DNA of 62,296 bases, filler included, from Catajapyx aquilonaris (GCA_000934665.2; 3 parts of 3 records of this genome joined end to end with filler, not necessarily neighbours in it), one strand, 5' to 3'; positions 6,612 through 62,296 are shown, numbered from the whole stretch's first letter. Numbers and translations are program-made. Notes: a model not told the origin generated them from the letters alone.

Positions 6612-6612
<1 letters not shown>

Positions 6613-15134: not shown

Positions 15135-15429
15135 TGTGCTGAGCCAGAATCGGTCGTCTTCTCAGCGAGGCCTGTGACCGGCGATTAAAATGCATCAGAA
15201 CAGCACGAAATATATCCGTATGACTCGAAGTGTGATTGGCTCCTCATACTTGAATAACAATTTGCACACAAAACGAATGAGCACAGTCCGTGAAGAACGG
15301 ACATGCCAATCACGTGTAGCGACAGCGTGACAAATACATCGACGCTTTATTATATTACGCCGCTTTTGAGCATGCTTCCATTATTGTAAGACGGCTTCAT
15401 GTTGAGGCACTTCTGACCGCCATTTGATT

Positions 15430-18196: not shown

Positions 18197-18557
18197 GACT
18201 TCGTTTGGGGCAGGCGATGCGGCCTGCTGACGTCTGAAAGCCCTTCACTTACGCTCTGCACGAGAATAGTTGGTACAGTTTAATTGCGTCATGCATCCGA
18301 TCAAATAGTCATATTCCTAGGATGTCTGGATTTTTATTGGCCATTTTCAGACCTGAAGAGAATGAGTCGTTCGTACCATTTTATGGCTGCATAAAAGTTA
18401 CGCTATTGACCAGAGATACCTTGGATTTAGGAGACGGGCTTCAGAACATCAACGGATAATATGCAATTATTGGTATTAAGCATTTGGCGCTTGCCAATGA
18501 CGTGATAAATAGACGTCTTATCTCATCCTCACAAAGAGACACTCGTGTAATAAGTAA

Positions 18558-18645
18558 GTCAGGAAGGTCAGCAACAGGCACGGAACCAACTTGTTTTTAT
18601 GCTGCATGACAACATTGTGAGGGTTGACCTCCTGATGTCATCCTC
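18558..18645 (-). pseudogene. Tiny deleted remnant of a GPCR exon 2
   Basis: 18558-18592 nearly matches GPCR-D 14389-14423 (KLVPCLLLTFLT). The adjacent EDDIRRS resembles ECL2 ENDIVRS/EMDLRRS. Confidence 0.6.
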
Positions 18646-18969
18646 CTGATCCCCCAAGGTCACTGATGGTCGTGGTCCAATAATACAACAGGTTCGAGAC
18701 AACCCATTTATTGAGACCAGCCTGCAGCAAGGCCGCTTCACGACTTTCTCGCGTACCCAACAGATTCCGCTGCTCTCTATAGTGAGGAGCGTCACAACAG
18801 TAAGTTCTAACAAGAACCACTGCTTATTGAAACCCCTTTTGACTTGGGTAAAGTTAATGGGTGGCAGAGGATTATGGGAAAGGACCGATCAGACACAGCA
18901 AAGTGATTTATTTAAGGCGAGGGAAATTTGGACCCCGACGGTGATGGAGTAGGAACTGCACGAACCGTT

Positions 18970-19785
18970 CTAGCCTCTTTTGTGTTCACTGCAGGGCCCG
19001 TTGTCACAAGGACTGCAGGAAATGGTCACAATGGAAGGCGAGTCTGTACTTCCAATTGCACCATCAACATCTTGTGCACGATTCAATCTTTTTCTAATCC
19101 AGGAAGTGCTGGTCCCAAGGGAGTATACTCTCTTGGGAACAAACAGTTGTCTGAAGGTGTCCCTGAATTCCTTGCTCATCGTGCAGTAGAGAACAAAGTT
19201 GATGGCACTGACCAGCAGGACAGTCACATTCAGAATTCTTGTCATGTAATGGTAGCAGTCGTTGAAGTAGCCGAATCCCCTGATGGCGACCAGAAGAGTC
19301 AGAATTCCTCCTGGGAACTCGGCGACCAAAAAGACAAAGAGGACCACCACCACCATCCTTGTGGTCCTCTCCATCTTTCGGTCCACCTCGGTGATGTTCC
19401 TCAATATGTCCCTCCTCCTCCTCTTGGCCTCGACCAGTGTCCAGACCAGCCTCAACGTCAGAATTGCCAGCATCACGCACGGAACCAGCTTCATCAAGAT
19501 GGCCGTTATGTAGAAGGTGGCTATGACTGTGACTCCAAACTCATGGGTGACATCGTTGTTCATTAACGGGGCATAGTAATTTCCGTAATAAGACCCGCGA
19601 GGTTTTATTTGGTAGATATAGTGGTAAGGAGTGTGCAGGATGGCCACAGTGACAAACACGCTGACCACTGTCCACTTGGCCCTGGTCTGGCTGCACCACT
19701 CTTTACACCTGCTGGGCCAACACACAACAAGGTATCGCCACACTGCCAGGGTCACGGTCAGCCAGATGGACACTGCGTGCATCAC
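18970..19785 (-). CDS. DmsR-like GPCR (copy E), exon 2 only (TM3-TM7); exon 1 not in this contig
   Basis: Intact 272-codon exon after acceptor CAG at 19786-19788; very similar to copy D. Confidence 0.8.
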   Translation of the reverse strand: MMHAVSIWLTVTLAVWRYLVVCWPSRCKEWCSQTRAKWTVVSVFVTVAILHTPYHYIYQIKPRGSYYGNYYAPLMNNDVTHEFGVTVIATFYITAILMKLVPCVMLAILTLRLVWTLVEAKRRRRDILRNITEVDRKMERTTRMVVVVLFVFLVAEFPGGILTLLVAIRGFGYFNDCYHYMTRILNVTVLLVSAINFVLYCTMSKEFRDTFRQLFVPKRVYSLGTSTSWIRKRLNRAQDVDGAIGSTDSPSIVTISCSPCDNGPCSEHKRG

Positions 19786-19814
19786 CTGTAGACACGGAAA
19801 GAGAAGTCAAACTT

Positions 19815-20705: not shown

Positions 20706-20805
20706 NNNNNNNNNNNNNNNNNNNNNNNNNNNNNNNNNNNNNNNNNNNNTTAATTAATTAANNNNNNNNNNNNNNNNNNNNNNNNNNNNNNNNNNNNNNN
20801 NNNNN
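20706..20805. other. Artificial contig-joining spacer
   Basis: 44 N + TTAATTAATTAA (stops in all six frames) + 44 N. Confidence 0.97.
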
Positions 20806-41502: not shown

Positions 41503-41602
41503 NNNNNNNNNNNNNNNNNNNNNNNNNNNNNNNNNNNNNNNNNNNNTTAATTAATTAANNNNNNNNNNNNNNNNNNNNNNNNNNNNNNNNNNNNNNNNNN
41601 NN
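41503..41602. other. Artificial contig-joining spacer
   Basis: 44 N + TTAATTAATTAA + 44 N. Confidence 0.97.
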
Positions 41603-42939
41603 CTGGCAAACCATCTTCATTGTTTTGGTCTTGTTGGATTCTGCCACTCAATAGAGCACCTGCAACAGCAGCTCCATAAACAACGCATTCCTCCGGTGCG
41701 ATGGACATGTCGAGTTCTGTCCACTCGAAGAAATCCTTCACCATTTCCACTAATTTCGGCATACGCGTCGAACCACCAACCAAGACTATGTGCTGTACTT
41801 GGCTCTTTTCAATGCCGCCCTTCCTTAAAGTGCTTTCCACTATATTTAGCGTGGTAGTGATAGTATCAGCGCATAGATTTTCAAATTCATGTCGAGAAAT
41901 CTGAAACAATATGGTACTTGTAACATATATACTATACAAGTCGACCAAAATGTTGAATAAATAATGATTTACCTTATACGTGTAATCGCAGCTTCCCCAA
42001 ATGTCATTAAACTGTATCGCTGTCTCATTTTGAACTGACAGCATTTTCTTGGAGTTCTCACAGGCTGTGTAGAGCTTTGACATTAGCTCAGGTCCGAACA
42101 TCAACTTGGGCTCAATGTCACGAGGAATCTTTTTCAAACACTTAGACACCAAGAGGTCATCGAAGTTCTTTCCTCCCAGAACGGGATTACTCACACTCAC
42201 AACTAGTTCGGGGTGTAAGTCTTTCATATTCAGCACCGACACTTGAAAACAGTATGTGCCCATGTCATAAACCAGCAAGTGATTTACGTTCCTCAGGTTT
42301 TTTTCAAAGCAGTAAGCAAGCGCAGCAGCAATGCAATCGTCTATGACGTGGAGGTGAGTGACTTCTGCCCATTCAGCTACTTCGCTAGTTGCTTGATTTC
42401 GCTGATTTGCGTTAAAATAGGTGGGCACAGTCATTACAACCCGGGTCACATTGAAACCTAGAAATAACTTGGTATTTTCCAGCAGTCTTTGCAGCAACCA
42501 GGACAGCATGCGTTCAGGATAAAAAGTTCGCGTTTCGTTTCCTTTATCCACAGAAATCTGGGCTTTTCCTTCACAACGTGACACTCTAAACGGCCAGTAA
42601 ATTCTACATGTTGGCTGAAGTGAACAGTCGGTGTCTCTTCCAATCAGTTGCTTCAAGTCGAACACTGTGTTTTTTGGATGGCTTCCCATCTGAAACCAGG
42701 TCGACAGGTCAGAACCACTCGGATTGCTAACAAACATAAAATAAAAATGATCTCACCTGTTCCTTAGCCTTACCACCGACATAAATCATAGTGTCGAAGA
42801 AAGACACACAGCTAGGAACACCACTCCTTTTGGTCCAGCGCTCGGGAATAATTTCGACCTTTCCATCCTTCCACACTGCAATTCTAGATTCGGTTGTTCC
42901 AAGGTCCATACCAACAACTGATGTACTTTCAGAAGCCAT
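41603..42939 (-). CDS. Hsp70-like G1: degenerate NBD, 3' end cut by the contig end; exons 42939-42757, 42689-41973, 41900-41603
   Basis: [28 protein letters not shown]; phase-0 GT-AG introns. Confidence 0.85.
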
Positions 42940-44163
42940 TCCGATGTTTGGGTGTGTCAGGTTGCTGATTACTCTTGAAAAGAATTATTTTGTACGTACA
43001 ACACTAGAAATACGAAGGGAAAGAAAATTTTCATATCTGTTATTGTCAATGTCACCCAAATAACTGTAATATTGTGTGAGTAAAGCCTTGATATGCTGTT
43101 GTCTCTAAATTTGTTACTGCATAATAAATTATATTACAAAGCTTCCATGCAGGATATCTCTGGTGGAACATTTTATTTGACAGTCTGTACATACCCATAT
43201 GTATTATAATACCGGTATATCATATAAAATATATTAGAGCTACAAAGATGCGATGATAATGATTTGGACATACCTATAAATTATTGACACATCCAGACGT
43301 TTTCCGCCACCTGATAAATGTCCTCACAATGAGTCATGAATTCATCTTGGCTGTGTAGGCCGGCGTTATGCACATTAATATTCCGGATCCCACTAAATTC
43401 TCATTTAGAAGTAACAGTATGTTATACTAATAGCTATAAAAGTAATACTCAGGTAAATCATTTCTTACCTTAGGTAATAATAATTTTTCACATTACTTCA
43501 CAATTGTACAGGGAATATCCGAAAGAATGTGCTGCTTCCTTATAGCTTGTTGTCTCTTTTCTTGACTGGTATATGCTACGAGGAGTTCTCTATCGGCATG
43601 CCTTGGAAATAATGCGCATTCGCTTATCGCGACAGAGTTATCTCGTTACTGCGGCAACCAAAAGTGTGCTTTTGTACTGCTGTCAGACCTTGTTTCTTGC
43701 ATTCTAATAGGGGTTAATTTCCTTCACTGTTTCATCCTCTGGCCTATGTCTCTTTGTCAGCATGCCGGAAGAACTGAAGAAATGGAGAACGATTAGAGGT
43801 TCTACTGTTTGGCGCACTATACAGGATGGTCAAGTCGATTTTTTAATATTGAAAAATTACTGTTTATTTAAAAAAAATTAATGTCGCGGTTGACCCTGCA
43901 ATATAATTTGAACTGCACGAGTGCGTTCATGAACTCCAGGTGATACGTAGCATTCAATAAGGTTAGTTAGACGCTCGGTAAATTATATTTCTTCATCAAA
44001 ATATATTCATTCACAATTGTGTACAAACGAAAATGTAACCTCTCTAAAACACTTACGAAACATGCAGTATATTATGAGAACATTGATATAAATCAATTGG
44101 CCAAATATATTCTGCGAATAAAATTGTACAGACATTTACAACAGAACTTTGTGTGACAGGTAA

Positions 44164-45317
44164 TTATTGCGGTTGATTTCTCAACTTATTTTTTAGTGGT
44201 TCGTACATTTTTCTGAACGTGTTCAGTTCAGTCACAAACGTGTCAAGTTCGGCCTCGTCGTTATCCTCTATGAAAACCAGCATATTACAACACGCATCCT
44301 TTGCACTATCTTTCTCTTGGTCCGAAACCTCGTCACAACCGGTTGTTGTTTCCAAAGCACGCTTCAGTTCCAACACATAATTCTCCAGATTTAATTTGGC
44401 GTCGACCCTCTTCTCTAACAACAATTCCTTTTCGTGAAAAAATCTCAGTTCTTCCCGTATTTGCGACATCTCGTTGTCGCTCGCTGAATGTGCCTTGCTG
44501 TTGGTGAATGTGTCTCTTTCTCCAGAAACTTCTTTGATAGCACGAACAAGGAGAATTCCGTTGGGTTTTACTCGGCATGTGACTTCAGCCTTATGGTTAT
44601 CGTTCTTCTTGCGGACAACCACCTATAGAAATAATAAATGGAAGTCAAATATTAGTGTAATTTGCAAACTGGCCAATTATCAATCATAAACGACATGAAT
44701 TGACAATACTTTCCTTAGCCACTACTGGTTGCAAAACTGGACAAGTTTCCTTACTGTGTAAATGACCCAAAATTTAATACCAAACATTGTCTACTTACTG
44801 GTATTGTGACTTCAACACGGCGGCCTTCTGAGCTCTTCCAGTTCCCATTTTTGTTAAATTTTACAGCGGAACTTCTCTCTAAAATTTGCAGCGTGCTTTT
44901 GGTGTGATATAAAAGCAACGATAATGTGTTGTGGGCAGGATCTCTGGTGTCTGGCAATATGTTATGTTGTTCAGTAATCTCCAACTCTGCAGCATGTCCA
45001 GAGATGACCTCTTGGTCATTGGCCACCCGAGAGATGCTTACATTCTTGCCATCAGCCTCGTTTTTGGCATGGGAAGTAGGCCTACTGTCAACACTGGTTT
45101 CTGTGAGAGCTTGTCCCTGCTGCTCTTGATGATGGCCTTGACTGGAGCTTTTTAAGTCATATAATTCTTTATCAGTGGGACAGTACCAGTCCTCCTCCGA
45201 AAGACTCCTCAAACTGGTTAACGTGGCATTCTGGCTGCTGCCATTCTCTTGCTGTGTATTTCTTTCATAGCGGATGAATAAAGACTTAATTCTGGCCCAC
45301 CAGCCATTCCACGCCAT
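44164..45317 (-). CDS. Hsp70-derived G2: no NBD; low-complexity N-terminus, last SBD strands and helical lid; exons 45317(or 45389)-44799, 44622-44164
   Basis: VTCRVKPNGILLVRA, DAKLNLENYVLELKR, CCNMLVFIEDN (cf. Hsp70 AKNxLESY and lid helices); phase-0 intron after VTIP. Confidence 0.7.
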
Positions 45318-46834
45318 TTTAACCTCGCCTTGTGTTCCGTGATTGGAAATGTCAGCAGTTTCCCAGTGGTCCAGGCTCAAGAAGGAAGTCTGAAAAATAG
45401 GCATTTTATTGTCTTGTGGTCATTGAGTCCGGACTTCATTATTTTGGTAGTATAAGGCATTGTAATAAAATGAGTAAGAATATTTTAAAATGAATTTAAA
45501 TCATGAAGTGATTCATTTTATAACGAGAAACATTTAGAGTTTCCTACCTCATCGGGCAGTCCGGATGTGTTTGGAACCTCTTGTCAGTTATTGCTCTCAG
45601 TGTCCTCTTCTGAAAACTAGTCTTTAACAAACATGCCTACCTTTGTTTTCCGAACAACCTCAAAGCACTGATTATGTCACCTCCGTATATGGAATGCTAT
45701 CAGAAACCATTCTCCTTTGCTCTCATTATCTCGTTACCATAGCATTCATGTGTATCTTTGATGTCTGGAAAGTGCCAGAAATAATATATCAACTTTTCGC
45801 ACTGAACTGCGGAAAAACAAATTGCAAGCAATAAGTGAAACCACAATTTTTATGTACTGCGAAGTTGATGCAAATGACATATGACGGCAGCACTGGCTGA
45901 AGTGGGCTAAACAAACCATTGAAGCGGTTTGTTTACATGTGTTGTCACACGAAGACCTTGGGACTTGTATGGTTGCTTTCAAATGGCAATGATTGAAACA
46001 ATTAGCAAGCAAATTTTTAATTATTGTAAAGAACAATAGAAAATTTGAGGCGAAAGTCATTTGCCAAATCAGGTTGTGTTCATGGGAAGAATAAATGCAA
46101 CAATAAGGCATGGTGCAGGGACTGACCGCGTGTGATTGTAGCAGCACAATTTATACACAACTGTCCTTTCCTGTTGGAGAGTATACTGTTCCCTTACATG
46201 CCTAAGTGCTAATGAGACGTATACGTGTGAAAGCTGTAAAAAAACCGAGCATATCATCGATGTGTAATGTTCTTTTAAAAATACGATAAATAACAGTGGG
46301 ATAAGTCGGATATTTTGATAAGAAGGAATTACTTTTAAGTTACTACAAACATTTAAATAGCTAATCATCAGGGGATTGGTATTGAATGCTAAATATAACT
46401 CTCGTTATCAAATGATACTTAGCCCTTTCAACTTTATGCATGCACGGTTTCTATGGCAATAAGATAATGAACCAATGTACTCGTAAAAAGATGGTTGTAT
46501 CAGAATGGCTTTCCTCATCCGAAGCTCCTGGAAGTAACAGGTGATTCTCTGTTGAACACCTTGTGTTATAATCATTATTCTGCCTAACACTTTTGTGTTC
46601 CACTATTGAGGCGTACATTTTTACTATTGAATAATTTGTTTTCACGCATATAATTATTACATCAGAATATTCCGCAGCTGCAGAGCAACCAGTGTGTGCA
46701 AAAAATGACGGAAATGGCACCTGCAAGAAGACCTGTGTTTGGGATGGACCCTGCCACTTGGAATTACGGACATGCTGAGTGTGTGGATAGTTGAACCAAT
46801 TAAGTTCGAAGTAATTAGCAGCGAGCCTGTGACA

Positions 46835-47851
46835 ATGGCCAGTACCAGGCTTCTTCAGAAATATTCCAATGAGAAGAATCAGGAAGTCTGTCTGGCCAGG
46901 AAATTGGACAGTTATGCAGACGCACAGGCCAAAACCACATATCGTCTTGCGGGATCACGTTACTGTGACACCATTACCATCCCAGGAAACAACAAGTCGG
47001 AAAAAGCAGTGAACACTAAGGAAGATGGTAACAAAATCAGCGGTCACAATGGTGCCGCAACACTTTGCAAGGCGGAGGACTTGTCCCAAGGCCATCGAAG
47101 CATCATCAACAGTCGAAGCCTGTTCCTGAAGTTCGGAGAAGGACATTTTCTTATTTGTAATAACAATTTTACGACTCAGTTCAACCGGCAGGTTACTTGC
47201 AAAAAATTGGACGCAAACTGGGCCTCCATCAACATACCTGTGAGTACTGTCTATTTTATTAGTTATAAAAATGATTTGTTATGAAATAACATAGCTTGAT
47301 TAAATAATTAATATCATAATTGCGTCATACAGAAGATCGGTCTGTAGGTGATTTTTCTATTTATTCCCACTTTGACATATTTTCAGAAAGAGACGAATGG
47401 AAGAGCAGGGAATGCTTCCAGTAATATTCGTATGAATGTCATGACCGTCACTGTCGATGCCAACGGGATCTTTCATGCTGAAGCTGCCAAATCATTCAGA
47501 GGGAAACGTTACATTGTCATACCGCAAAAGGCAGACACCCAGAGGAAATCCGAGTTATCAGAGATGACAAAGGAAGCGACGATATACCGCGACCAGGAAG
47601 CAAAGAAGAAGGATGCGGAGGTGGCCAAAGCAAACTTGGAGAAGTACGTGTACAACTTGAAAAGAAAGTTGGAAGCAACAGACAATGGCGACATAATTTC
47701 CGATGACTATACACGACACGTGCAGGATCAGTGCTACAAAATGCTGGACTTTATAGACGAAAACGAAACCGCAGATAAAAACATGTTTGTATCTAAGCTG
47801 AAGGAATTCAGGAGAATGTTTCAACCACTGATGAACAAGTTGGGAAAATAA
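46835..47851 (+). CDS. Hsp70-derived G3: no NBD, lid-only; exons 46835(or 46772)-47239, 47387-47851
   Basis: VTVDANGIFHAEA, AKANLEKYVYNLKR; phase-0 intron after INIP, as in G2 and G7. Confidence 0.72.
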
Positions 47852-48490
47852 TTGGGCTTCATTGTGAAGGTTATTTTACACTGTAGTTTCATGTTGGGAT
47901 TAATAAAAAAATACATGCTGACATTATTACACATTATGTTTTCTGGCATCGTGAAACATTATGACTCTGTTCAGAAATAATTAAAATAATGGCAATATTT
48001 TATCTACTAGTTGACACACATTGTGGTAAGTTACATTACGATTATCATGCATTTAAAATGTGCGCATTCTTGAATAATGTTAATTAGGTACTGCTCGTAG
48101 ATTATGTTTAACTTTTCCATCACGATTAATTAATTACACTTTAGGGTACATTTTATGAAAAACTTCCTGGAGTATGACCTCCGGATTGACTGCACGGAGC
48201 AAACAAAGATAAGTGCTTGGAGAATGACGATAAGTAAGCAATGAAGCCAACTGATCATGATTACCTCTAAGATATACTAGTGCTATCACGTGTATCGGTT
48301 ACTGTGGAAGCGCCTGAAGAGACAGTAAGGTTAGTATGACTAGGGTTATTCAGTATGTCTGCTCCGTACAGTACATACTGTTATAGGTCATCTTTAATGA
48401 CATGTGACTTTTTCATACATTCCCTGGCGTGCGGTGACTGCAGTCGACTGGTAAAGAGGTGACTGACTGATTGACAGTGGAAATAGGAGA

Positions 48491-51412
48491 ATGGCTGGGA
48501 AGACCATTGGGATTGACCTGGGCACCACCAACTCTCGAGTGGCAGTCTGGCACGAAGGTCAGGTGAAGGTCATTCCAAACAAAGAAGGGTATCCAGCTAC
48601 ACCAAGCTATGTCACTTTCAATGACTCGGAAAAACTCGTTGGATCAGCTGCCAGGCATCAGGTGAAAACATACTCAAAACATACTAACTTACATAATTAT
48701 TAAGCATCGAAATCGCCTAATATTACGAGAGTTTTACCTTTGCATAGACCACACTAAATTGCTAAATATATTCATCGATCTGTTCTTGCAGATATTTCTG
48801 AACTTGAAAAAGACAGTGTTTGATTCGAAACGACTGATTGGTCGGACTTACCAAAATGTCTGCAGAGAAAGCGACCAACTCAGGAGGTTCTGGCCATTCC
48901 AAGTGGTCGAAAAGGACGGAAAGGCTGCCATAAAAGTTGGACGCGACACATTAAATGCGGAGTCTGTCGCAGCGATGATTCTGGAACAGCTGAAAGGAAC
49001 AGCTGAAAAGTTTTTGGGTGCGAAGGTAACCGGCGCTGTGGTGACGGTACCGGGCACTTTCAACGACGCCCAGCGACTAGCGACGATCGACGCTGCACGT
49101 GTAGCCGGATTCGAGACTGTCCATCTTATTAACGAGCCAACTGCTGCCGCCTTAGCTTACTCAATTGATAGCAGGAATAAAGAAAAAAGAAACGCCCTTG
49201 TGTACAGCCTTGGAGGAGGGTCATTCGACGCCTCGGTGGTCAAAATGGACGGATTGGACATCCAGGAGTTGTCCACAGCGGGAGATCCCTGCATGGGAGG
49301 AACAGACCTTGACATAGATCTGGTAGAGTTCGTTGTAAGAGAAAACCATGAGCCGTTGAATATTGACACATCCGATATTAAGTCTCTCATGATGATAAAC
49401 CGGGCCTGCGAAAAGGCAAAGAGAACTTTGTCCGCAATTGATGAGGCTTATGTAGCAGTGGACAGTTTCAACGAAGAAAACGATTTATGTATGAAGGTAA
49501 TACTGCCGTCCTTTATTGTCCAGAATTTAGATTCATGTTTTCTACTGCTTTCAGATTACGCGACATCAGTTGGAAAATGTGTGTCAGGACTTTATTCGCC
49601 AAACTGTAGAAAAAGTCGAGGAGGCTCTCAAGAAAGCCAAGATGAGCAAGCAGGACGTCGATCACATTATTCTGGTGGGTGGGTCGACTCTAATTCCTAA
49701 GATACGCCAGGTTGTCCAAGACCTTTTCCCTGGCAAACCGCTTTGTAAAATCGTCGATCCGACTGAAGCAGCTGTGCGTGGGGCTGCCATACAAGCTGCC
49801 ATTATAAGTGGAGAAAATATTGACATCGAGGAGGAGCAAGAGGAGAGGGCAATTCGACCTGAACAGATAGACATGCTGTACTCGTACCACATGCGATACA
49901 GCGAATCTCAAGATGAGAATTCGCAGGCTTCCAATGAAACCGAAAGTCAACCAGGAGACATTCCGCCCATTGGCATCCGTTTGGGTGTCATGTCCTCGCA
50001 AGTAGCCGTCTGGATGAATGGCCATGCTAATATCATATTAAACCGTCATGGAGAAACAAGCACGCCTAATTACGTGGCATTTACTGAACATGAGCGGCTC
50101 ATTGGGGCTCCAGCAAAGGCTCAAGTGAGATACCTCTGCTTTAATGTTTAATGAACATTTCATCATGTCGGTTTTACCTACATTTCAGGTGGAGGTGACT
50201 GCTGAGAATACTGTATACGACATGGCACGTCTGATTGGCCGGCCCTACGACGATCCAGATGTTCTGAGCAACTTGAAGTCCTGGAGTTTCCATGTTGTGA
50301 ACGATGGTGGTAAACCGTCCATTGAAGTCCAGCATCAAGGGGAGAAAAAGCGATTATACCCCGAGCAGATAAGTGCAATGGTCTTGGCCAATTTGAAGGA
50401 GACAGCAGAGACACAGTTGAGGACAAAGGTGATCGATGCAGTGTTGACGGTACCTGCTTACTTCAACGATGCCCAAAGACAGGCGACCAAAGACGCGGGA
50501 CAAATAGCCGGCCTGAACGTACTGCGAATAATAAACGAGCCAACAGCAGCAGTCATTGCTTACGGATTGGAAAACAAGACGGAAGAGATCAACGTTTTGG
50601 TGTATCACCTTGGACGAAGCACTTTTGAGGTCACTGTGATTGGTGTCAAAGATTCGTCGTTCAAGATTAAGTCAACATGTAGTGACACCCACTTGGGAGG
50701 GATAGACTTTGAAAATCGAATTGTGGATTTCTACGTTGATATGTTGAAGAGCAAGCACAACAAGGACATCACAGACAATCGCAAAGCCATGCAACGATTG
50801 AGAGGAGCCTGCGAGGAAGCCCAAGAAACACTCTACCAGAGCAGGGAGGCATATGTGACTGTTCGTAACTTAGGCGACGGAATCGACTTAAACCATGTGG
50901 TATGCCATAAAAATTATTTAGAAATGTTATTGTCATATCAGAATTCATACATGCAACATTTAATATTGCAGATGTCAAGAACGAAATTCGACAGCCTTTG
51001 CCTGGACCCTTTTCAAAAGACGTTGGATTTGGTGCAGCAAGTTCTCTCAGACGCCAATTTAGATGTCAGCAAGATTGACGAGGTCGTTTTGGCGGGCTGT
51101 TGCAGCCGAATTCCGAAAATACAGAGCATGGTGAAGAAGTTCTTCAACGACAAAGAACTCCTAAAGAACATCCGTCCAGAGGAAGCAGTTGTCATCGGAG
51201 CTGCTAAACACGCCGCCATTCTTTACTCCATGCAAGCTCATTATGAGACCGAAGATGAGAACCAACACAAGACCCAATCAGATGCAAATGCATCGCTCAC
51301 GTATCGAATGCAAGATTCTGGACCACAAGATGAGGAAGTCACAAAGGAAGCATCCGAACCGCTGGAAGATCTTCTCCAGTACAGAATATCATCTTTCATA
51401 GACGACGATTAG
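48491..51412 (+). CDS. Hsp70-like G4: two tandem NBDs and an acidic tail, no SBD (~865 aa); exons 48491-48661, 48792-49496, 49555-50124, 50189-50899, 50972-51412
   Basis: All introns GT-AG and phase 0. Exon 3 runs in one frame from the end of NBD1 ([11 protein letters not shown]) into the start of NBD2 ([14 protein letters not shown]). Confidence 0.85.
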
Positions 51413-51584
51413 TTCACTGACACTCTTCAAGTTGGTGATTGTCTCGTAATTTTTCGTGCGGATGTGCAATGCGATAGGCTACTGTTATGTATCAGTTTAA
51501 ATGGAGAGAGTGTAGAGTGTGATTATAATAAAAATTAAGGCGTATGACAAAAGTACAGATTAAAAAGCAGTAAAAATTAACACT

Positions 51585-51897
51585 ATGCAAATTTTCAACA
51601 TTCAAACCCAGCTCTTTACTACTCACCGAACAGAATGAGTTTCATTTTTCATGAAACAGTCAAAATTAAGACAGTGAAACTTCCAAGAGAAATGATCTTG
51701 GTATGCAGCAAAATCCATCCTGAAAAGCGGCATCCTTTTTATGTGGCACTGCACTGGCGAGAATTTTTACACCAGTTCTACAATTTCATCAACAATTTGA
51801 TCAAAACAGGTCCAGATATCAGCACAGGAAAAAATAATGCGCACTTTATCTACCTGTCTTGCATGTCGATTACTACTTTTAATGTCATGGACACCGT
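51585..51897. repeat. Duplicated non-coding block
   Basis: 51585-51755 matches 58612-58762; 51828-51895 matches 62223-62291. Confidence 0.75.
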
Positions 51898-52445
51898 GCA
51901 ATGTTTCCATTTATCATAGATTAGTTATCACGCTACCATCGCAACCAAGACGGTGCCGTGCACTTCTGATTAGATTTGGGCCTCTCCCGCGATATTCACA
52001 ACTGCCTAAAATAGTTATGACTGCAGAAATAATGACAGATATGACAAAAGGATGAGACAATTGATTGGTGATACGAAAAACCTGTAGTCACTTTAACATG
52101 AGACATTATAATTCAAATAAGCCTAAAATGCCACTCTTAACAGCACCGTGCCGAAATTAACACTTTATTAGGAACACACTCACTGGCAACTTATATCAAT
52201 AGCCTATAACATTCATATGGTCGAAATCGACATGTTCTAATTGTGCTGCTACATAACATTGCCCATTAGGCTCGACCAGTCCTTTGCCTTTTTTAAAGTA
52301 CGTTCAGTTTTTTCTCGAGCATTCCTGTGCTAGCCGCTGGGTTATCATCAATCCACTGTAAGACAGTCTTGCACTTATGTGTCAGATTAATACTATCTGT
52401 GCTTTAGGTGTGACCTTTCCAGCACATGTCCCTTTCAGTTCGTTT

Positions 52446-55400
52446 TTAAATAATACAGCATTTTGTTTTAGTTCTTCTGGAATGAGCTTTTCTCTTTTCT
52501 TCCTCCCTAAGTAGCTCTTCTGCTCTCTTCTTCTGTTCAAGCTCCTCATTGGCTAAAAATTGAGCTTTTCTCTTTTCTTCCTTCCTAAGTAGCTCAGCTT
52601 CTCTCTTCTTGTGTTCAAGCTCCTCATTGGCTACAAATTGAGCTTTTCTAATCTTTTCTTCCTCCCTAAGTAACTCTTCTTCTCTCTGCATCTTCTCAAG
52701 CTCCTCTTGGCTGAATCGCGACCTTGCATTCCTTATTATGGTTATGCTATTTCTTTGGCCAAATCTGGCTTCTTCAGCGGTGACATGGAGGATTCCATTC
52801 TTGTCCACTTCAAACGTGACCTGCAACTCAATAAGTGGCCCTCCTGGTTGAGCAGGTACGCATCTCAAGGTAAATTGATCGAGATAATTGTTTTCTCCTA
52901 TCAAGGTGCTTTCTCCTTCATATATCTGAAAAGGAAGATATAAAAATGATCAAAATTTTATTAAACAGTAGCGTATAAATTTTGCAACACTCACACGTAT
53001 ACTAAATTCCTTTCGGCCATCTTGAGTTGTCGTGAATGTGTGTGTATGTATACATGGTATTGTCGTGTTTTTCTTCAGCATTGGAAACATTCTATTCCCA
53101 TCAACCTGTATCCCAAGGGACATGGGGATCACATCCTCCAGCGTCACTTCGTTTATGCGATGATCTTCGTCATCACCGTGAAGAACAGCCGCTTGCACTG
53201 CAGCTCCGATGGCAACAGCTTCTTCTGGACTGACGTTCATACAGAGCTCTCTGTTGGCGAAGAACTTTTTGACCATTTCCTGTATTTTGGGGATGCGAGT
53301 GGAACCTCCAACCAAAACAACGTCGTCAATCTCACTCTTGTCAACCTTGGCTTCCGACAGAGCTTGGCTTACAATATCCATCGTCCTTCGGAAAAGATCC
53401 CCGCACATGTCGTCGAAACGGGATTTTGACAACTGCAAGGTAAGGTATTGCAATATTTAGAAATAGCGACAACAATATTATTTTAACATTTTAATGGCCC
53501 ACCCTGTGCTTCAAGTCCACTCCATCGATAATGTTATCTACAGTGACATATGTCGCAGTATTGTTGGAGAGAACGTGCTTGGCATTTTCACAGGCCACCC
53601 TCAGCCGCTGCATGGCCTTGTGATTTCTCCTGATGTCCATGTTGTGTTTACTCTTCAACATGTCGACATAGAAGTCCACCAGTAGGTTGTCAAAATCTCT
53701 TCCTCCCAAATGAGTGTCGCCGCCGGTTGATCTGACCTTGAAGGTCAGGCCTTTTATGGTCAAAACTGTGACGTCGAAAGTTCCACCTCCGAGGTCGTAT
53801 ACCAGAACATCGGTCTCTTTTTGAGCCTTGTTTTTCAATCCGTACGCAATAGCCGCTGCTGTTGGTTCATTGATAATTTGGAGGACGTTCAGACCAGCGA
53901 TTTTCCCTGCGTCTTTGGTCGCCTGTCTTTGGGCATCGTTGAAGTAGGCAGGGACAGTCACCACTACGTCGGTCACCTTCGTCCGCAGCTGTCTCTCTGC
54001 CGTTTCCTTCAAATTGGCCAGGACCATTGAACTAATTTGCTCAGGGTAAAACAGCTTACACTCTCCCTGGTAATTGATTGAAACTCGAGGTTTACCATCT
54101 CGGTTCACCACAGGGAAACTCCAGCATGATCTGATGTCCTTTTGGATGTCGGGGTCATCGTAAGTGCGACCTATCATGCGTTTGGCATCAAACACAGTGT
54201 TCTCTGGAGCCACCAGAATCTGAAATTTATTTGTAATGTCGCATGTTTGAATTGGATGTAAGAAAAAGTGGACGAACAACTTTTTCATATTTTCTGGAAA
54301 AAATTAATCTGCTTTTGCTCACCTCTTTCTTGGCTGCATCCCCCACCAATCTTTCCAGTTCAGTAAACGATACATAACTCGGGGTAACTCTATATCCATC
54401 CCCGTTGAATAGTATGTCGACCACGCCATCTTTCCACACGGCGATGCAAGAACAAGTGGTGCCCAAATCTATGCCTACTGCTGGTCCTGACGCAATTGGC
54501 TCCTCTTTATGGCCTGACTCAATCTTAACCTGAAACCGTAATGAAAGTAGTGTTTAATTTACTGCCACATTTGATGCAAAATGTTCCAACAAAAAATGTC
54601 TAATAATAATTGTTAAAGAATGAAAAAACTCTTAGGCGAATTTATTTATTTACTCTTCACTCACCTTGTCACTTTGGCCGGTATCGGATCTGTCCTGCTC
54701 TTCTTCGGAGGTGACTTGATCCGCATGTCTTCTCGTTTCCTCTAGTTGCCCTCTTTCGGAAATGACATCGCAATGCAAATTATGACCTAACATATCGGCA
54801 GAAAATCGGTACTGAGACAGGTCAGGTTCCGGCCTGGTAAAATGTTCAGGGCTGACACGTTTGTTGACCTTTTCCTGGACATCCTCTACTGCCTTTGCCT
54901 CTTCTGAAGTGGAAGTTTCTCTGTCCTCCTTTGGCTTGTCTGTCACGTAAAAAGAGGTTGTTAATTATTGTGCAAGGTTTGCAAGATTCTAGTCATGTCA
55001 CCTGTCACTTCCTGTGAGCAGTTTATTCCAGAAGAAGCCTGTTTTTGCGGTTGTGTGCTTTTATTTTCATCTTTTTCACTACGAGGAAAACTAATTGCTT
55101 CTATCCCGGGAGTCAAGAAACCTCCTTTTATTTGAATCCTTTTGTTGAGCACAGCACCAAAAACAGCGGCTCCATACACAACTACTTCCTCTGGTTCTAT
55201 GCACTGGTCCAGCTCTTTTAACTGGAAGTAATCCTTCACCATCTCTCTCAACTTTGGTATTCGTGTCGACCCACCAACCAGGATAACGTGCTCTATTTGA
55301 CTTCTCTCTATTTTGGCCTTCCTTAATGCACGTGACACTACACTCAAAGTCGCATTGAACGTGTCGATACACATTTCTTTAAATTGCCGCCTAGATATCT

Positions 55401-56420
55401 ATGACATTAAGACAAAAGTCACTATAAACCACCAGCAAGAATTATGTATTGGTGTTTACCTTGTAGTTGAAATCATAGTTCTGGCTGAGTTTATCGGCGC
55501 GTATGAAGGCCTCATTTTCTAATGACAGTGTTTTCTTGGCCTCTTCGCAGGCAGGCAGTAGCTTCCAACGTGCTTCCGGATCACCCTTCAAATCTAGCCT
55601 TCTTTTCTGCCAAATCATTCCTAAACAGTGTTTCATAAGAAGTCCATCTAGGTTTCTCCCTCCAAGATTAGGATCACTCTCGCTGCAGACCACCTTTGGG
55701 TTGAGGTCCTTCACATTCAGCAGCGACACTTCGAAGGCATAAGTGCCCAAATCGTAAACCAGGACATTTTCAACGTCCTTCACATTCTTTTTGTAGCAAT
55801 ACCCAATAGCAGCCGCAGTGCAATTGCTAATTACGTGAAGGTTAATTATATTGGCCATTTGTGCAATCTCGCTTGTTGTTTGCTCTTTTTGAGTCTCTTT
55901 GAAGTAACCGGGTACAGTCATTACAGCGTGTGTGACATTATGACCCAGAGAGATTTTTGCGTTTTTCATCATTCTTTCCAGCACAAAGTACATGATGTTT
56001 TCTGGGTAATACCTTTGGTTCTTGATGCCTCTTTCCACACAAATCTGCGCTTTGTCCGGCGGAAGAAAGACTGTAAAAGGCCAATGATGTCTGTTGTTCG
56101 GCGGCAGAGAACCGTCTTTCTGTCTTCCAACCAGACGCTTCACATCAAACACCGTGCTTTTCAGATTCCTGCCCATCTGCAATAAAGAAATTTCAGAATC
56201 ACTTAAAGATACCATTTTGAAAATTCAATCAAACCTGTATTTTGGCAGCTCCTCCAATTAAGATTTCTGAGCCGACAAAGGACACATAACTGGGCGTACA
56301 AAGCTGTCCTTTTGCGGAGTGGTCCGGAATAATATGGACTTCTCCATTTTGGCACACTGCAATTCTGGACTCTGCCGTTCCCAAGTCTATCCCAACAATA
56401 GAATGATTTTCAGAAGCCAT
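52446..56420 (-). CDS. Hsp70-like G5: degenerate NBD, acidic linker, canonical NBD, SBD-beta, charged repeats, CaaX (~1138 aa); exons 56420-56235, 56176-55460, 55398-55002, 54939-54665, 54529-54323, 54219-53503, 53432-52995, 52925-52446
   Basis: Phase-compatible GT-AG introns give one ORF. NBD2 retains [34 protein letters not shown] and GGSTRIPK. Ends TKTKCCII*. Confidence 0.82.
52480..52710 (-). repeat. ~78-81-bp coding tandem repeat (3 copies) of an Hsp70 helix-A/B-like segment
   Basis: [27 protein letters not shown] / [26 protein letters not shown] / [23 protein letters not shown]. Confidence 0.85.
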
Positions 56421-57012
56421 TGTATGGATTCAGGCTTCAGGAGCAATCTCCACAGCTATAGGCCTACTGTGGAGATACAATTTCCACCTTATAATTATCA
56501 CAGATGTATTATCTTATTGGCTTAGCACCAAGATGCCCAACATAGATTAAAATAATCCTATGCTTGATAATAATCACAAACTCCCAATCACACGACAGCA
56601 CCTTATAATCCGGGTGCTAACGGTTTGAACTTTGTATTTTCTGAGAAAAGTATGAAACTCGGTACACTCATTCTTTGGACACTTCTGAGCATATCTAGAC
56701 GTGGGGCCACGATGGCCGACCACGCCGGGGGTCAGCAGGGTTGCCATGTCTATCAGGTGCAGCATCATTTAGGACCTTGCATTCGGTCGCCACAATTAGT
56801 CACTTCTGAACATGTTTGGAAGTGGGGCCACTATGCTATGCTGTGGGTCACACGAGGGGGGTTGCCTTAGACGCAATATTATTCTAACGAGCGTGTCATC
56901 TCCCCCATGCATGTTAAATTGCTGGTTGCCCACCCCTGGAAGATCTGCCATGTATTGCGGGTTGCATACCCCTGATGGATCTTATCACCTGTAGGTATCG
57001 GACTCCGATTTT

Positions 57013-58130
57013 TCACACTACTGGAAATGTTACACGTTTAAAATGGAATATTGCATTCCATTTGTTCAATATTATTTTTTGACAAACCACCGTATACTTA
57101 CAGAGAATATGATTGTGGCCAGGATCGTTACCCTTCGCTATCACTGATCTGGCAGCTTCACGTTCGAAATTATGACTTGACTTTTGACTCATGCTTTTTC
57201 CACTTAGGTCAGGTTTGTCAGGAAGCAGCGGTTTTTGGATGTTTTTCTTTACTTTGTTTTTAATACAAGTGGAAGAACTGCACAGACCAAACTGGTTGGA
57301 CGGTTTATGAGAAACAAATCTGATCATAATTATTGCACTGTCTATATGTCGCCAAGCACACCTTGTACAGCTGCTCCATAGACTGGGTCTCTTCCAAGGT
57401 CTCTTCGCATTGTTCCAGCTCTTTCAAATTGAAGAAATCTTTCACCATATCTCTCAGCTTTGGAATTCGTGAAGATCCACCTACCAGCACCACGTGCCCT
57501 ATATGCCTTATTATTCTATTCCGGTCTTCGAGAGTGCAAGAGCCACTAGATCCAAGGTCCTTCTGATCATGCCAGTGACCATGGCTTCAAAATCTTTTCG
57601 AGGAATCTGTAAGAAACAGAAAAACACGATGGCGTACGTACCTAATTTGCACCAATTGGCATGTATAAAATGTCACCTTGCATTATTTTGCTTGAGTAAT
57701 AGAATACTGTAAATGGATAGCAAAAATGATGTCGCTCAAAATCTTCATTTGCCAATAGATACTTATTGCATAATGCTGGTACATTTTTTATCCAACAATT
57801 TATTTTAGAGAATATTAAGAACACCAGGCTAGTTAGCTCGTGTTTTATATCTTCACCAACTGGTAAAATAAATAAAAAATTGTTTTATGGACTCGATATT
57901 TTTACTTCCCAATTGGCATACCATAGTCGTATCTTGCAAAAGAAGTCGTCGCCGTTGAGAAGACAAGGAACATTTACCGTTGTCTAATTTTGGAGGGAGA
58001 GTGTTTTCTTGGCTCTCTCGCAGACTGGGTAGAGCTTAGACAGTGCTTCGAGGTCATTCCTCAAATCCGTCATACAAGTAGTAGCCTCGTCCAATCAATC
58101 GCTTCACTTCAAACACAGTGTTCACAGAAT
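57013..58130 (-). pseudogene. Hsp70-like pseudogene G6 (decayed paralogue of G7)
   Basis: Fragments NTVFEVKRLIGRG, KLYPVCERAKKTLSLQN*, VLVGGSSRIPKLRDMVKDFF and KPDLSGKSMSQK, with stops, frameshifts and a large NBD deletion; intron homologous to G7 intron 2. Confidence 0.8.
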
Positions 58131-59336
58131 GATGCCTAATGACTGCAGCAATAACACTTGAACTGCCATAACAATTTACTGCCACAAATGAAGACGCGTA
58201 TGTCCCCCAACAATAATAATCATTTCTGTTGACGAGAATCGCGAAGAAAACTTCCCCTCTCCAGTGAAATGCGGTCAATACTTCATTAAATTGTTGCTCC
58301 AAAAATTCAACATGCTCATGATGTCACATTCATCAAGGCTTGATTTACATCGACAGAAAATTCAGGACGCCGTTTTTCTGAGGATGGATTGTTGGAAGGG
58401 TATGACAGAAGAACTGAGACGATGAAAGACAACTTTTACTCAATATAACATTATATATTGGTAGTTTGAATTACCAGAAAATGTCACTCTTGAAAGTATT
58501 TGCTGAAATGATCAGGTTATTTGGAAAACACGTTGCGATCTTTTCCGAAGGATATTGTAAGCCAAGCTATGTCCCTAAAACTTTCTTTGGCCATTGAAAA
58601 TGAGAGAAAATTTTGCAAATTTTCAACATTCAAGCCCAGCTCTTTACTACTCACCGCACATAATGAGTTTCATTTTTCATTAAACAGTCATAATTAAGTG
58701 GAACTTCCAAGATAAATGATCTTGGTATGCAGGAAAATCCATCCTTTTTATGTGGCACTGGCTTAAATTATTACACCATTATGGGAGTTTTACATATTGA
58801 TGAATTTTAATACGACACACTGCTACAGTATGTCCACGTTCTCCAGTTATTATTAGACTAGTGTTTTTTCAAGATGTTATCTGCCCACTTGTGGTTATCA
58901 GTAAATGCACGAGGGCAGCCATTGCAGGTCGTCTAGAGGTCATAGCAACCTTGACTTTCACAATTTATTACATTTGGTGTTGGTAGAAACACTGTCCATC
59001 ATAGTTGTATTATAAGAAATTGGAAAAATTACGGAAATTTACAAATCTGGGATTTAAAAACTTACGGTCATGTGCTTGGTAAGGAACACATCCTGATCTG
59101 CATGTAGCACGGACTCTCTTTAATGTGCAGTACATATATTCTCACCCCAAATGCATATTTTATTGCAATAAACAATTTTACGAAATAAGGTGTTACAATA
59201 ACATCCTTGACAACATCAGTAAGTGAGCATATTTCTTCACTCAAATACGGATCAACAACAGAGCGATTTTTAAGCCCATGTTCTAGTTTTGAGAATTAGT
59301 TAGTGTCAGTACGCAGTGCTGTTTCCATATTGCACG

Positions 59337-62116
59337 TTACTGTTCCAACTTTTTCCGAATTGGTTGAAACCTTTCAGTAAACTGGTCCATAGCATCAAGA
59401 AGAGTGCACATTTGGGCCTGATAGTTTACCTCAAGAAAGTCCAACATTTTATAGCACTCATTCCTCGCCCAATTCTTCTCTTCTTCGGATACTCTGTTGC
59501 CTTCGTACGCTGCTTCAACACTACTCTTGAGTGAATACACGTAGTCCTGCAATTTACACTTGGCCGCTTCTTCATCAGTCGTCATTTCTTCCTTCTTGCG
59601 GAAGAGCAATGCTTCCTTCTTCATTTGTAACAAATCAGCCTGTCTTTCCGCGTCTGTTTTGCATGTCGTATGATGTAGAATTCCGTTGGAGTTAATGCTT
59701 AAAATTACTTCATTCCCACTGACACAACCACTGAATGCAACCACATCCTGAAACTGAATGAAAGACAAGGTTTATTAGTGGGCCTATATGAAAAATTGGT
59801 AATATCGTTGCGTATCATATTATGTTTGAAAAAGTTCGGTACACTTACAGGGACTGTGATTGTGACACGTTTTCCCGCCAACTGCATGGAGCTAGACACC
59901 TCTTTATTCTGTGTAATTATTTGCAAAATTCCTCCACTGTAATTAACACCAACTTGTGTACTAAGCTCGTTCCGTTGATTAACCATCGGTTTGCACGTCT
60001 TGGCTGGCTGCTCTCTTCTTTTGACCTCTTTCTTATTGGACATTTTGTCACTTTTACTTATGCTCGAGCTGACCTGATGATTGTGTAATTCGTGGGATAT
60101 TGGTCGATACGGAGAGGACACGCTCATGTTTCTTCTTACAGTGGGTTGGGTTCTAGGATATATTCCGCCAGTTTCTCCGTGTGTTTTGCCTCCTGTGTTG
60201 TGTATGGCAGTATCTTTCTGTATCATCCCTGCGACGGAGGTTTGTTGGAATATTGTCGCATGAATATTCTGGTCATGGTCATTACCTTTAGTTTTTTCTG
60301 ATCTGGCAGCAGCTTCGAGTTTGCGATTGGGACTTGTCCTTTGAGTCATGTCTTTTCCACTTACATCAGCAGGTTTGGTATTGGGAAGCGGCGGATTTGT
60401 TTCCTTTACCATGTTTTTTAAAGGAAAAGAAGTCCTGTACATACCAATTTGGTTGCCCTGCAAATACGAAACGCCTTTGGTCATCATTGAACTTTTGCCA
60501 ATGGCACCTTCCACAGCTGCTCCATAGACTAGTACATCCTCTGGTTCTATGCACTGGTTCAGCTCGTGCAAGTTGAAGAAATCCTTCACCATTTCTCTTA
60601 GCTTTGGAATCCGTGTAGATCCACCAACCAGGACCACGTGCTCTATTTGGCTTCTTTCTAATCCGGCCTTCGACAGTGCACGTTCCACTAGATCCAAAGT
60701 GACACTGATCACTCCAGTGACAAGTCTTTCAAATTGTTGCCGAGAAATCTGTAGAAATTGTAAAATCATGCTGGAGTACTTAAATTGGCAATGAAATATG
60801 CCTACATATGAAAGATCACACTCATCTGCTTGGGAAAGAAAAGTGATAGTTAGCAAATATTATGATGTTGTCCAATTTTTGCATTTCCAAATTTTTGAAA
60901 AAAATTGATAATGTTGCATAATTCTGTTAATTTTTTCCGAGGTATTTATGAACCATGGAGAAACCAAGCCAGTTAGTTCGTGTGTTATCATTACTGAAAA
61001 TATCCCAAAGTGGTAAGGACATACATTTTTTTGCTTCCCAATTCTTCACCGATTGTATCAGGCATTCGTACCTTGCATGTGAATTTGTAGCCGCTGCGAA
61101 GTCTATGAACTGTTATAGTCGTCTCATTTTGAATGGAGAGTGTTTTTTTGGCTTCCTCGCAAGCTGGATAAAGCTTAATCCGTGCCTGGAGGTCATTACG
61201 CAAATCCAGATTCTGAATTGTCATAATCTCAATTAAACAGTGTGACACCAGACACCTGTCCAATATCTTCCCTCCCAGCATAAGGTCATTTTGGCTTGCG
61301 ATGGTCTCAACATGAAAGTCGGTCACTTTCATCACCGAAGCTTGGAATACGTACGTGCCCATGTCATAGACCAGCACATAGGTCTCGTTCTTCAGGCCCT
61401 TATTGTGACAGTAAGCAAGAGCAGCGGCAGTGCAGCTGTCGATGACTCGAATAAGTCTGATCTTGGCCATGTCTGCCACTTCACTCGTCGCTTGCTCTCT
61501 TTGAAACTCGTTGAAATAAGCTGGAACCGTCATTACTGCTTGGGTCAGACCGAGACGCAAGAATTTCTGTGCGTTACTCAGCATTACTTCTAGCACCTGG
61601 TACATTACACTTTCCGGATGATACGTCCTCTTGCTTCTGCCTATCGTCACTGAAATACGGGCTTTACCGGTAGTGCACGACAGCAATTGAAAAGGCCAGC
61701 CAAAATTTTCGATTGGTGGAATGGATCCGTCGTGTCCTCGACCAATCAGACGTTTCACTTCAAACAAAGTGTTCTTCGGGTTGGTGGACATCTGTGAGAT
61801 GCAAAGAGGTGAAGATAAGCAGTAAATAAATGGCATTATTTTTAAGCCCCATTTCGACCTGTTAGGATGGTTTAAAATATTTAGATTCAATTACGACCAG
61901 CTTATTATTAATTCAGTTATACTGTATACTCACCTGTTGTCTGGCCAAGTCTCCAACGAAGATTTGATTGTCTCTGAAGGAGACATAACTCGGGGTGAAT
62001 TTCTTTCCCGTGTGTGAGTTTGGAATGATCTCGATCTTTCCACCTTTCCACACTGCAATTCTGGACTCGGAAGTACCCAAATCGATCCCAGAAACAGGTA
62101 ACTTCATTAAAGACAT
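59337..62116 (-). CDS. Hsp70-like G7: degenerate NBD, ~190-aa low-complexity insert, lid (~737 aa); exons 62116-61934, 61791-61072, 60748-59849, 59747-59337
   Basis: [49 protein letters not shown]; all introns phase 0 GT-AG. Confidence 0.85.
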
Positions 62117-62296
62117 TTCCGACACTGTTGTGCGTTTCTGTAAAATGTTGCCTTTTCAAGCGAGAAAGAAAAAGGCATGTGATTCTTAAAACATCTAAAA
62201 CATGGCCACGTATTAGCGAAGGAAAAAAAATAATGCGCACTTTGTCTACCTGTCTTGCATGTCGATTACTACTTTTAATGATATGGTCACCATACA

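Follow-up and report, generated by a model that had tools for sequence, protein, structure and literature searches.

Hsp70-derived genes of the contig

The stretch of DNA analysed here, called the window below, comprises 62,296 nucleotides of Catajapyx aquilonaris (GCA_000934665.2), and the subject of this report is a cluster of Hsp70-derived loci (41603–62116) which fills one whole contig of it (41603–62296, 20,694 bases). Seven such loci were located on this contig by tblastn with P0007, a canonical Hsp70 of 655 residues from Nematostella. The Pfam family PF00012 was matched by 17 of the 21 open reading frame (ORF) pieces submitted, with E-values of 1e-8 to 1e-109 on the pieces of nucleotide-binding domain (NBD), and the two maps agree with the seven loci of the original prediction, which had been made from the sequence alone. 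Among 11 further ORFs of the contig, Pfam recognized no family in 10 and gave one chance-level match (E 0.042). A hidden Markov model (HMM) of canonical Hsp70 could be aligned over positions 3–388 in L1, twice in P, twice in C and in G7, and such end-to-end profile alignment assigns all NBD modules to the Hsp70 family (PF00012). Exon models were derived by scoring GT/GC..AG pairs against P0007; the genes have short GT..AG introns and are eukaryotic. In the following list, alpha designates one of the NBD classes described below, and SBD the substrate-binding domain; C1, the linker exon and C2 are counted as one locus, C.

41603..42939, minus strand: L1, alpha-type degenerate NBD (exons 42939-42757, 42689-41973, 41900-41603)
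44164..45404, minus strand: lidA, NBD-less, 354 residues (exons 45404-44799, 44622-44164)
46772..47851, plus strand: lidB, NBD-less, 310 residues (exons 46772-47239, 47387-47851; splice modelled only)
48491..51412, plus strand: P, two NBDs, no SBD, 865 residues (exons 48491-48661, 48792-49496, 49555-50124, 50189-50899, 50972-51412)
52446..54529, minus strand: C2, NBD, beta-sandwich and lid start (exons 54529-54323, 54219-53503, 53432-52995, 52925-52446)
54665..54939, minus strand: open linker exon between C1 and C2, with DLSQYRFS, its own ATG (MLGHNL...) and a stop 13 nt beyond the donor
54961..56420, minus strand: C1, alpha-type degenerate NBD (exons 56420-56235, 56176-55460, 55398 onward)
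57130..58123, minus strand: pseudogene, decayed copy of G7 type (alpha NBD and insert)
59337..62116, minus strand: G7, alpha NBD, insert, beta-hairpin and lid, 720 residues (exons 62116-61934, 61791-61072, 60748-60286, 60228-59849, 59753-59337)

The same two phase-0 introns are present in all six intact NBDs, with middle exons of 717, 705, 711, 717, 717 and 720 nt, exactly as had been noticed at first (705–720 nt). These introns had also been taken as a sign of modular duplication; in the sense of exon shuffling this goes beyond the data, the introns indicating only descent from one intron-bearing ancestor. In L1 they are of GT..AG type and measure 67 and 72 nt, and the gene is interrupted at its 3' end by the end of the contig, after residue 399, so that the truncated NBD initially described there is simply a gene cut by the contig end.

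In P, the exon 49555–50124 is a single open frame of 190 codons, in which the first NBD ends and, after a linker of some 45 codons, the second one begins. Since the join lies inside one open exon, the two-NBD reading already proposed for this gene requires no splice assumption. For C1, two ends can be drawn: it either stops at its own codon (54961–54963) or continues from a donor at 55002 into the linker exon, through a 62-nt intron (55002 to 54939) that would link them in frame. The first exon of C2 has no ATG. The corresponding gene C model would reach up to 1138 residues, with an NBD-linker-NBD-SBD layout, and a C1-to-C2 fusion is possible in this form. The in-frame splice route was nevertheless rejected as evidence for it, as dozens of GT/GC..AG routes stay open, and none of the contigs of the public run X1 (described below) crosses the C1–C2 junction or lies on the linker exon.

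A short peptide, DL[LS]QYR[FI]S, occurs at 51377–51391 (plus strand), in the disordered C-terminal tail of P, and at 54814–54800 (minus strand), in the linker exon of C. In the six frames of the 62-kb window QYR[FILV]S is found at just these two sites, the motif having been defined after being seen. The insert of G7 carries SPYRPIS. The alignment of the tail of P with the C linker is marginal (21 of 500 shuffles as good), the N-terminal parts of lidA and lidB are matched as well by 8 of 500 shuffles, and no real similarity was detected for the other pairs of linkers, inserts and tails (42–471 of 500).

The two NBD-less genes, lidA and lidB, are arranged head to head; they are 36% identical and both have open frames. 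Each begins with an upstream exon, which codes for an orphan, disordered N-terminal part of about 200 residues in lidA and one of about 156 residues in lidB, and exon 2 matches positions 473–613 of the canonical-Hsp70 HMM, which correspond to the last beta-hairpin and the helical lid. The N-terminal part of lidA gave nothing in Pfam and no usable match in an Atlas search, and no relatives of the lidB one were detectable. The structure predicted for exon 2 of lidB, from an alignment that included canonical Hsp70s, consists of two strands and three helices (mean predicted local distance difference test, pLDDT, 76; predicted template modelling score, pTM, 0.55). The best matches of a fold search were two structures of human HSP70, one of the substrate-binding domain (4po2, E 1e-4) and one of the C-terminal lid (3lof), and the superposition on the latter gave a template modelling score of 0.83 on the target and a root-mean-square deviation of 1.8 Å over 80 columns; Sse1 came only at ranks 19–20 (E 0.08). 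This exon is thus predicted to fold as the SBD-alpha lid of Hsp70. The claim of two lid-only genes therefore holds as far as the missing NBD is concerned, but the lid is not alone, since an upstream coding exon and the last beta-sandwich strands are kept. Between the two genes, at 46299–46965, X1 contigs also give a depth of 0.8, which could belong either to lidB, as its 5' exon, or to another transcript.

G7 carries a basic S/T/K-rich insert of about 190 residues between its alpha NBD and its beta-hairpin and lid. A beta-sandwich core, suggested by eye from strand likeness in G7, lidA and lidB, was rejected because profile scores were no better than those of shuffles. With the profile of canonical positions 392–478, shuffles equalled or exceeded the real score 28 times out of 300 for G7, 18 out of 300 for lidA and 74 out of 300 for lidB, against none of 300 for the C2 control, and the beta-sandwich is detectable in C2 only. 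The pseudogene is 68% identical to G7 at the DNA level over 998 nt; it contains an in-frame stop, is split over three frames and has lost the equivalent of G7 residues 82–256 (about 175 codons), which bears out its original description. It serves as a decay control, showing what true decay looks like.

In C2, the start of the lid continues into a charged repeat and a C-terminal KTKCCII, and the remaining canonical lid tail (...CKTVLQWIDDNPAASTGMLEKKLN...) can be read in two further frames downstream of the stop.

52483..52712, minus strand: 78-nt tandem repeat, 2.9 copies, coding for an E/K/R-rich helix within the C2 lid
52235..52445, minus strand: remnant of the canonical lid tail (...CKTVLQWIDDNPA...) in two other frames, in the 3' untranslated region of C2

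An X1 contig (52235–52925) covers this remnant, CCII end included, with zero differences. Since the canonical lid tail lies downstream in other frames, the CCII end is the outcome of a frameshift in a decaying lid tail. In a CaaX prenylation signal, the cysteine at -4 is followed by two aliphatic residues (-3 and -2) and by a permissive last residue, and many such signals are preceded by a polybasic stretch; at the end of C2, position -3 is a cysteine and not an aliphatic residue. The predicted chain of a degenerate NBD, an NBD, an SBD and a CaaX box is thus confirmed for the NBD and beta-sandwich of C2, whereas its join to C1 is unproven and its CaaX box is a candidate one.

As originally stated, EEVD, KDEL and signal peptides are lacking: neither EEVD nor KDEL was found in the six frames of the contig, with no [KH]DEL before any stop, and all four NBD-bearing models begin at the NBD without N-terminal extension, 7–10 residues before the GIDLG motif, as read from model starts and not from a signal-peptide predictor. 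No model appears to be a canonical cytosolic Hsp70/Hsc70, i.e., one chain of NBD, hydrophobic linker, beta-sandwich, lid and EEVD, and none looks like BiP/GRP78, which combines a signal peptide with KDEL/HDEL.

NBD classes, constraint and transcription

The roles of the NBD catalytic residues are known from work on Hsc70. The six NBDs were aligned with P0007 and compared at D10, T13, T14, K71, E175, D199, G201–G203, T204 and D206. This set is complete in C2 only, the other five NBDs lacking at least one residue. The alpha NBDs (L1, C1 and G7) are 49–53% identical to each other and 37–40% identical to P0007. They keep D10, T13, K71, D199, E268, K271, S275 and the adenosine-binding VGGSTRIP, have in common the derived changes Y15E, P176C and, in the gamma-phosphate loop, T-Y in place of G202-G203, and have lost E175 (D/N/S), T204 (C/A/V) and D206 (Q/E/Q). 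The beta NBDs are C2 and P2, the second NBD of P, with 62% mutual identity and 51–57% identity to P0007. P2 combines D10R, T13V, T14M, K71A, D199H, GG to RS, D206E, K271Q, R272E and S275Y with AGCCS where VGGST is expected, and nearly every ATP contact is lost. The gamma NBD is P1, the first NBD of P (44% identity to P0007; D199S and T204S). Hsc70 mutant structures named D199S and D206S were among the PDB matches. With its full catalytic set and beta-sandwich, C2 would be a competent Hsp70 module, and it is the only one of the array that these residues suggest to be a working ATPase. The statement that the cluster has no canonical member is thus nearly right, the tail of C2 being odd, and has to be amended for the intact catalytic set and beta-sandwich of the same gene.

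The divergence of these modules is large. In a tree of 23 rows, with canonical rows from animals, fungi, plants and protists and with Hsc70 and BiP as the named types compared, the tip branches of the window NBDs measure 0.32–1.63 changes per site, to which the alpha stem adds 1.24, against 0.04–0.28 for the canonical rows and a median tip of 0.21 over all 23 rows. The alpha clade is supported at 100/100 and the beta pair at 100/98. Because the branches are long, the trees give no placement of the family within Hsp70 as to a cytosolic or endoplasmic reticulum origin. Among solved structures, cytosolic HSPA1L, HSPA8 and HSPA1A head the best 60 PDB chains for the alpha and beta types; the best 60 of each search are all Hsp70-family NBDs, with no Hsp110, HSPA12, HSPA13 (an NBD-only form with a signal peptide) or HSPA14-Ssz1 among them, and the sequences do not point to membership of Hsp110/Grp170, whose beta-sandwich has a long loop and whose lid is extended.

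The alpha middle exon gave 16,076 matches among 1.84 billion representative proteins, with a best identity of 40%, and the alpha signature is found in none of the best 50 of the 150 matches listed. A word-index search of 5.8 billion clusters with an alpha NBD gave 11 matches (best 39%), and the best beta exon is 54–61% identical to any protein found. As far as such comparisons tell, the family is unrepresented in public protein sets. The highest-scoring matches are two-NBD proteins of poppy, carrot, rush, sedge, beetle, amphipod, nematodes, tapeworm and gregarine, several of which are two complete Hsp70s in a row; they were rejected as orthologues, their taxa being scattered and no grouping with the window modules being seen in the tree. 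P0125 (1055 residues) and P0128 (1021 residues, Trinorchestia longiramus) are organized like model C, with a strongly divergent NBD ahead of an NBD-SBD-lid chain, and are collinear with P and C, with 34–45% identity in the better half. However, their first NBDs are only 25–29% identical to C1, they show no specific grouping with the window modules in the tree, and they may be either real transcripts or fused annotations.

Selection was estimated from the ratio of nonsynonymous to synonymous differences per site (pN/pS) between paralogues, on the alpha NBD pairs, P2 versus C2 and the lid pairs. pN ranges from 0.22 to 0.41 and pS from 0.60 to 0.73; the ratios are 0.44–0.49 for the alpha pairs, 0.35 for P2 versus C2 and 0.54–0.65 for the lid pairs, lidA versus lidB giving 0.65 (0.51–0.84). 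The bootstrap 95% interval lies below 1 in all seven pairs, and neutral evolution is refuted for the tested NBD and lid parts. The paralogues are old, since synonymous differences are near saturation.

Twenty-one contigs of the public run X1 match the Hsp70 contig, 14 of them at 99% or more, and they skip six intervals, which are all GT..AG on the coding strand.

44620/44797, minus strand: X1 joint in lidA (cut +2)
49494/49553, plus strand: X1 joint in P
52925/52995, minus strand: X1 joint in C2
53432/53503, minus strand: X1 joint in C2
59753/59849, minus strand: X1 joint in G7
60227/60285, minus strand: X1 joint in G7

Five of these joints agree with the exon models, and the sixth exposed a 57-nt intron within the G7 insert. 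Loose ends of X1 contigs at 61072 and 61934 correspond, on the coding strand, to the opening eight bases of the exon that follows in G7, which brings support to each of the four introns of this gene. The stop of C2 is crossed by an unspliced contig extending from 52925 to 52235, and that of P by another one (51005–51542). As introns are missing from these contigs, X1 is taken as cDNA-like (complementary DNA), intron-less DNA copies being the alternative. The coverage of X1 leaves out 42297–43630 (5' part of L1), 46966–48966 (lidB and the start of P), 54303–55636 (the C1–C2 junction) and 56304–58304 (the pseudogene). The eight pieces of X1 contigs 1–4 show no other letter than the genome. In C2, two single-letter differences were seen, 53394 A>C and 53869 A>G, each in one contig and near its end; they could be due to an allele, a paralogue or an error.

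The original prediction is thus supported on several points: the modules evolve fast, the tested parts are not neutral, intron-less X1 contigs match at least lidA, P, C2 and G7, and a described subfamily that would account for the cluster was looked for and not found, the nearest structures being those of ordinary cytosolic Hsc70/Hsp70. The roles suggested there, those of co-chaperone decoys or of stress or immune sensors, are conjectural. As for promoters, no perfect three-unit heat-shock element (HSE) occurs in the whole window, where about 0.8 would be expected by chance, and no 8–10-mer is common to at least three of the six upstream regions.

Possible origin and function of the array

Few proteins are as conserved as Hsp70, whose arrangement of NBD, SBD and lid in one chain is regarded as invariable. 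The explanation that we prefer, with a probability of about 0.55, is that the contig is part of an old, lineage-restricted and constrained array of non-canonical Hsp70s, made mostly of non-hydrolysing modules around one working chaperone. The ancestor would have been one intron-bearing cytosolic Hsp70, copies of which lost or recombined domains under purifying selection. The alpha NBDs have kept the adenosine pocket; as their gamma-phosphate loop would be blocked and the catalytic base is missing, nucleotide would be held or sensed by them but not turned over. No peptide-binding sandwich is detectable in the alpha-insert-lid and lid-only proteins, which would therefore be unable to clamp clients or to act as foldases; most likely their part is non-catalytic, that of partners, regulators or scaffolds for working Hsp70s, and P may be a covalent two-NBD version of the same partner pairing. 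Hsp110 (Sse1) and Ssz1/HSPA14 are partners of this sort: they have the Hsp70 fold, ATP hydrolysis is dispensable in them, and they serve canonical Hsp70 as exchange factor and as subunit of the ribosome-associated complex, respectively. It is by functional analogy only with them that we infer a regulatory-partner role for the array proteins. G7 differs from them in that its insert lies between NBD and lid, with no detectable beta-sandwich core. The array would accordingly not be a classical heat-shock dosage cluster.

Several points weigh against this explanation. The nearest relatives by sequence are ordinary Hsp70s and not Hsp110/Ssz1, which makes the likeness to the latter an analogy only. 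That hydrolysis is lost is deduced from residues whose roles are known in Hsc70, and is to that extent presumptive. Synonymous differences are saturated, so that the strength of selection is imprecise. X1 is not recorded as RNA, and its cDNA nature is deduced from the missing introns; nor does a missing perfect HSE exclude heat induction. Finally, even C2 may not cycle normally, since its interdomain linker reads VTLEDV instead of the canonical LLLLDV.

The strongest competitor, although rather unlikely, is birth-and-death debris, in which only C2, and perhaps G7, would be functional, the lid-only, NBD-only and two-NBD forms being transcribed leftovers of unequal crossing-over and inversion. 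It is consistent with the true pseudogene within the array, with the frameshifted, decaying lid tail of C2, with the head-to-head arrangement of lidA and lidB, as after an inversion, and with the N-terminal parts and inserts for which no relatives are detectable. In contrast, the two lid genes have kept open frames at just 36% identity, with a pN/pS of 0.65 (0.51–0.84), and lidA is spliced in an X1 contig; the degenerate second NBD of P still gives 0.35 against C2, and the three alpha NBDs retain the same derived residues in spite of about 50% divergence.

A more elaborate proposal, which we consider doubtful, is that of a modular Hsp70 machine working both in trans and in cis, in which a two-headed P, docking lid and alpha-insert-lid proteins and a membrane-tethered C2 would act jointly. 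P would there link covalently a near-intact NBD and a nucleotide-blind one, imitating within one molecule the pairing of the NBDs of Hsp110 and Hsp70. Docking of the NBD-less and alpha-insert-lid proteins on working Hsp70s would involve either their lids or the DL[LS]QYR[FI]S peptide, and C2 would be held at the membrane by a prenylated polybasic CCII end carried on a stiff charged helix. None of these architectures is known to have been described in Hsp70, nor did the literature searched contain one.

An expansion of active chaperones that would raise the tolerance to heat or other stress by gene dosage, as has been suggested for Halicephalobus mephisto and oysters, appears improbable. Long-branch, lineage-specific Hsp70 expansions are documented (PMC6872716; PMC11268181), and C2 has every catalytic residue. 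However, five of the six NBDs lack at least one of these residues, in four of the five models reaching a stop (lidA, lidB, P and G7) the N-terminal portion of the beta-sandwich is not detectable, and neither a perfect HSE in the window nor EEVD was found. A misassembled repetitive array or wrong gene models are hardly credible as an explanation: the contig is short, with one end falling within L1, the C1–C2 join is a model only, and the two-NBD database proteins are taxonomically scattered, several being two full Hsp70s, as from fused annotations, but the paralogues are 31–62% identical, too different for assembler collapse or mis-joining, X1 agrees with the genome at six junctions, with no other letter in eight pieces and two single-letter differences elsewhere, and the fusion in P lies inside one exon.

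To come back to the constrained array, comparable expansions are known in other lineages. The hsp70-like copies of the tapeworms Echinococcus and Taenia are described as clustered, of cytosolic type, of elevated diversity, mostly without signal peptides and of unknown function (PMC4413821). According to the same text, they share with the array a lineage-specific cluster without the canonical C-terminal motif, and the available part describes no ATPase-dead NBD with insert, NBD-less or two-NBD forms (PMC4413821). The tapeworm origin is independent, the two NBDs of a Mesocestoides protein grouping together, away from the window modules, and the array thus seems to resemble this expansion as a kind, not as a clade. 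In H. mephisto and Diploscapter, highly divergent paralogues with long branches are likewise reported within one lineage; they are reported to be heat-induced and are treated as working chaperones (PMC6872716), whereas the array is mostly deficient in catalytic residues and has no perfect HSE. Plant Hsp70T, as far as the accessible text goes, are also cytosolic variants without the conserved C-terminal motif, in a different kingdom and with no mention there of dead NBDs, NBD-less or two-NBD forms (PMC10687569). An expansion of HSP70 in oysters (PMC11268181) and a survey of metazoan Hsp70-12, -13 and -14 (PMC12692333) complete this background. Within the limited literature collection searched, nothing relevant was found on two-NBD or NBD-less Hsp70s. 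The kind of expansion is known, the novelty lying in the architectures and in the alpha-type NBD.

One lineage would thus keep, under selection, dead NBDs with disordered inserts, NBD-less lids, a two-NBD chain and a working copy with a possibly lipid-anchored tail. Should the cycle of canonical Hsp70 be a target of the array proteins, these would be natural experiments on the parts sufficient for regulation, exchange or targeting, and a source of ready-made dominant modulators of use in chaperone research. Otherwise, the array still records how far an Hsp70 gene drifts under constraint.

Contig borders and neighbouring genes

The Hsp70 contig is bounded on its left side by a spacer, of which an identical copy lies at 20706–20805.

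41503..41602, no strand: artificial contig joint, left border of the Hsp70 contig

It is composed of 44 N, TTAATTAATTAA and 44 N, the central element being twelve bases which give a stop codon in all six frames. As TTAATTAATTAA puts stops in every frame, both spacers are man-made, and the window is composed of three separate contigs which they connect; gene order across the spacers therefore carries no meaning. Ankyrin, DMSR-type G-protein-coupled receptor (GPCR) and BTB-zinc-finger genes lie on the other side of the spacers, and their linkage to the Hsp70 cluster is not established. On the first contig, 3384–19806 holds a tandem set of at least five two-exon genes for GPCRs resembling DMSR-1/FMRFamide receptors, on both strands; the best named matches of a GPCR exon are all from arthropods, with tick first (44%), then mosquito, termite and mayfly. 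A single-exon ORF at 545–1606 (minus strand), of about 335 residues from the first ATG, contains ankyrin-like repeats, as judged by eye.

Two short non-coding repeats were also seen on the Hsp70 contig, 51586–51721 versus 58614–58745 (91%) and 51803–51895 versus 62197–62291 (86%). Both flank Hsp70 genes, 3' of P, after the pseudogene and before G7, and they may be small mobile-element fragments or recombination scars of the array.

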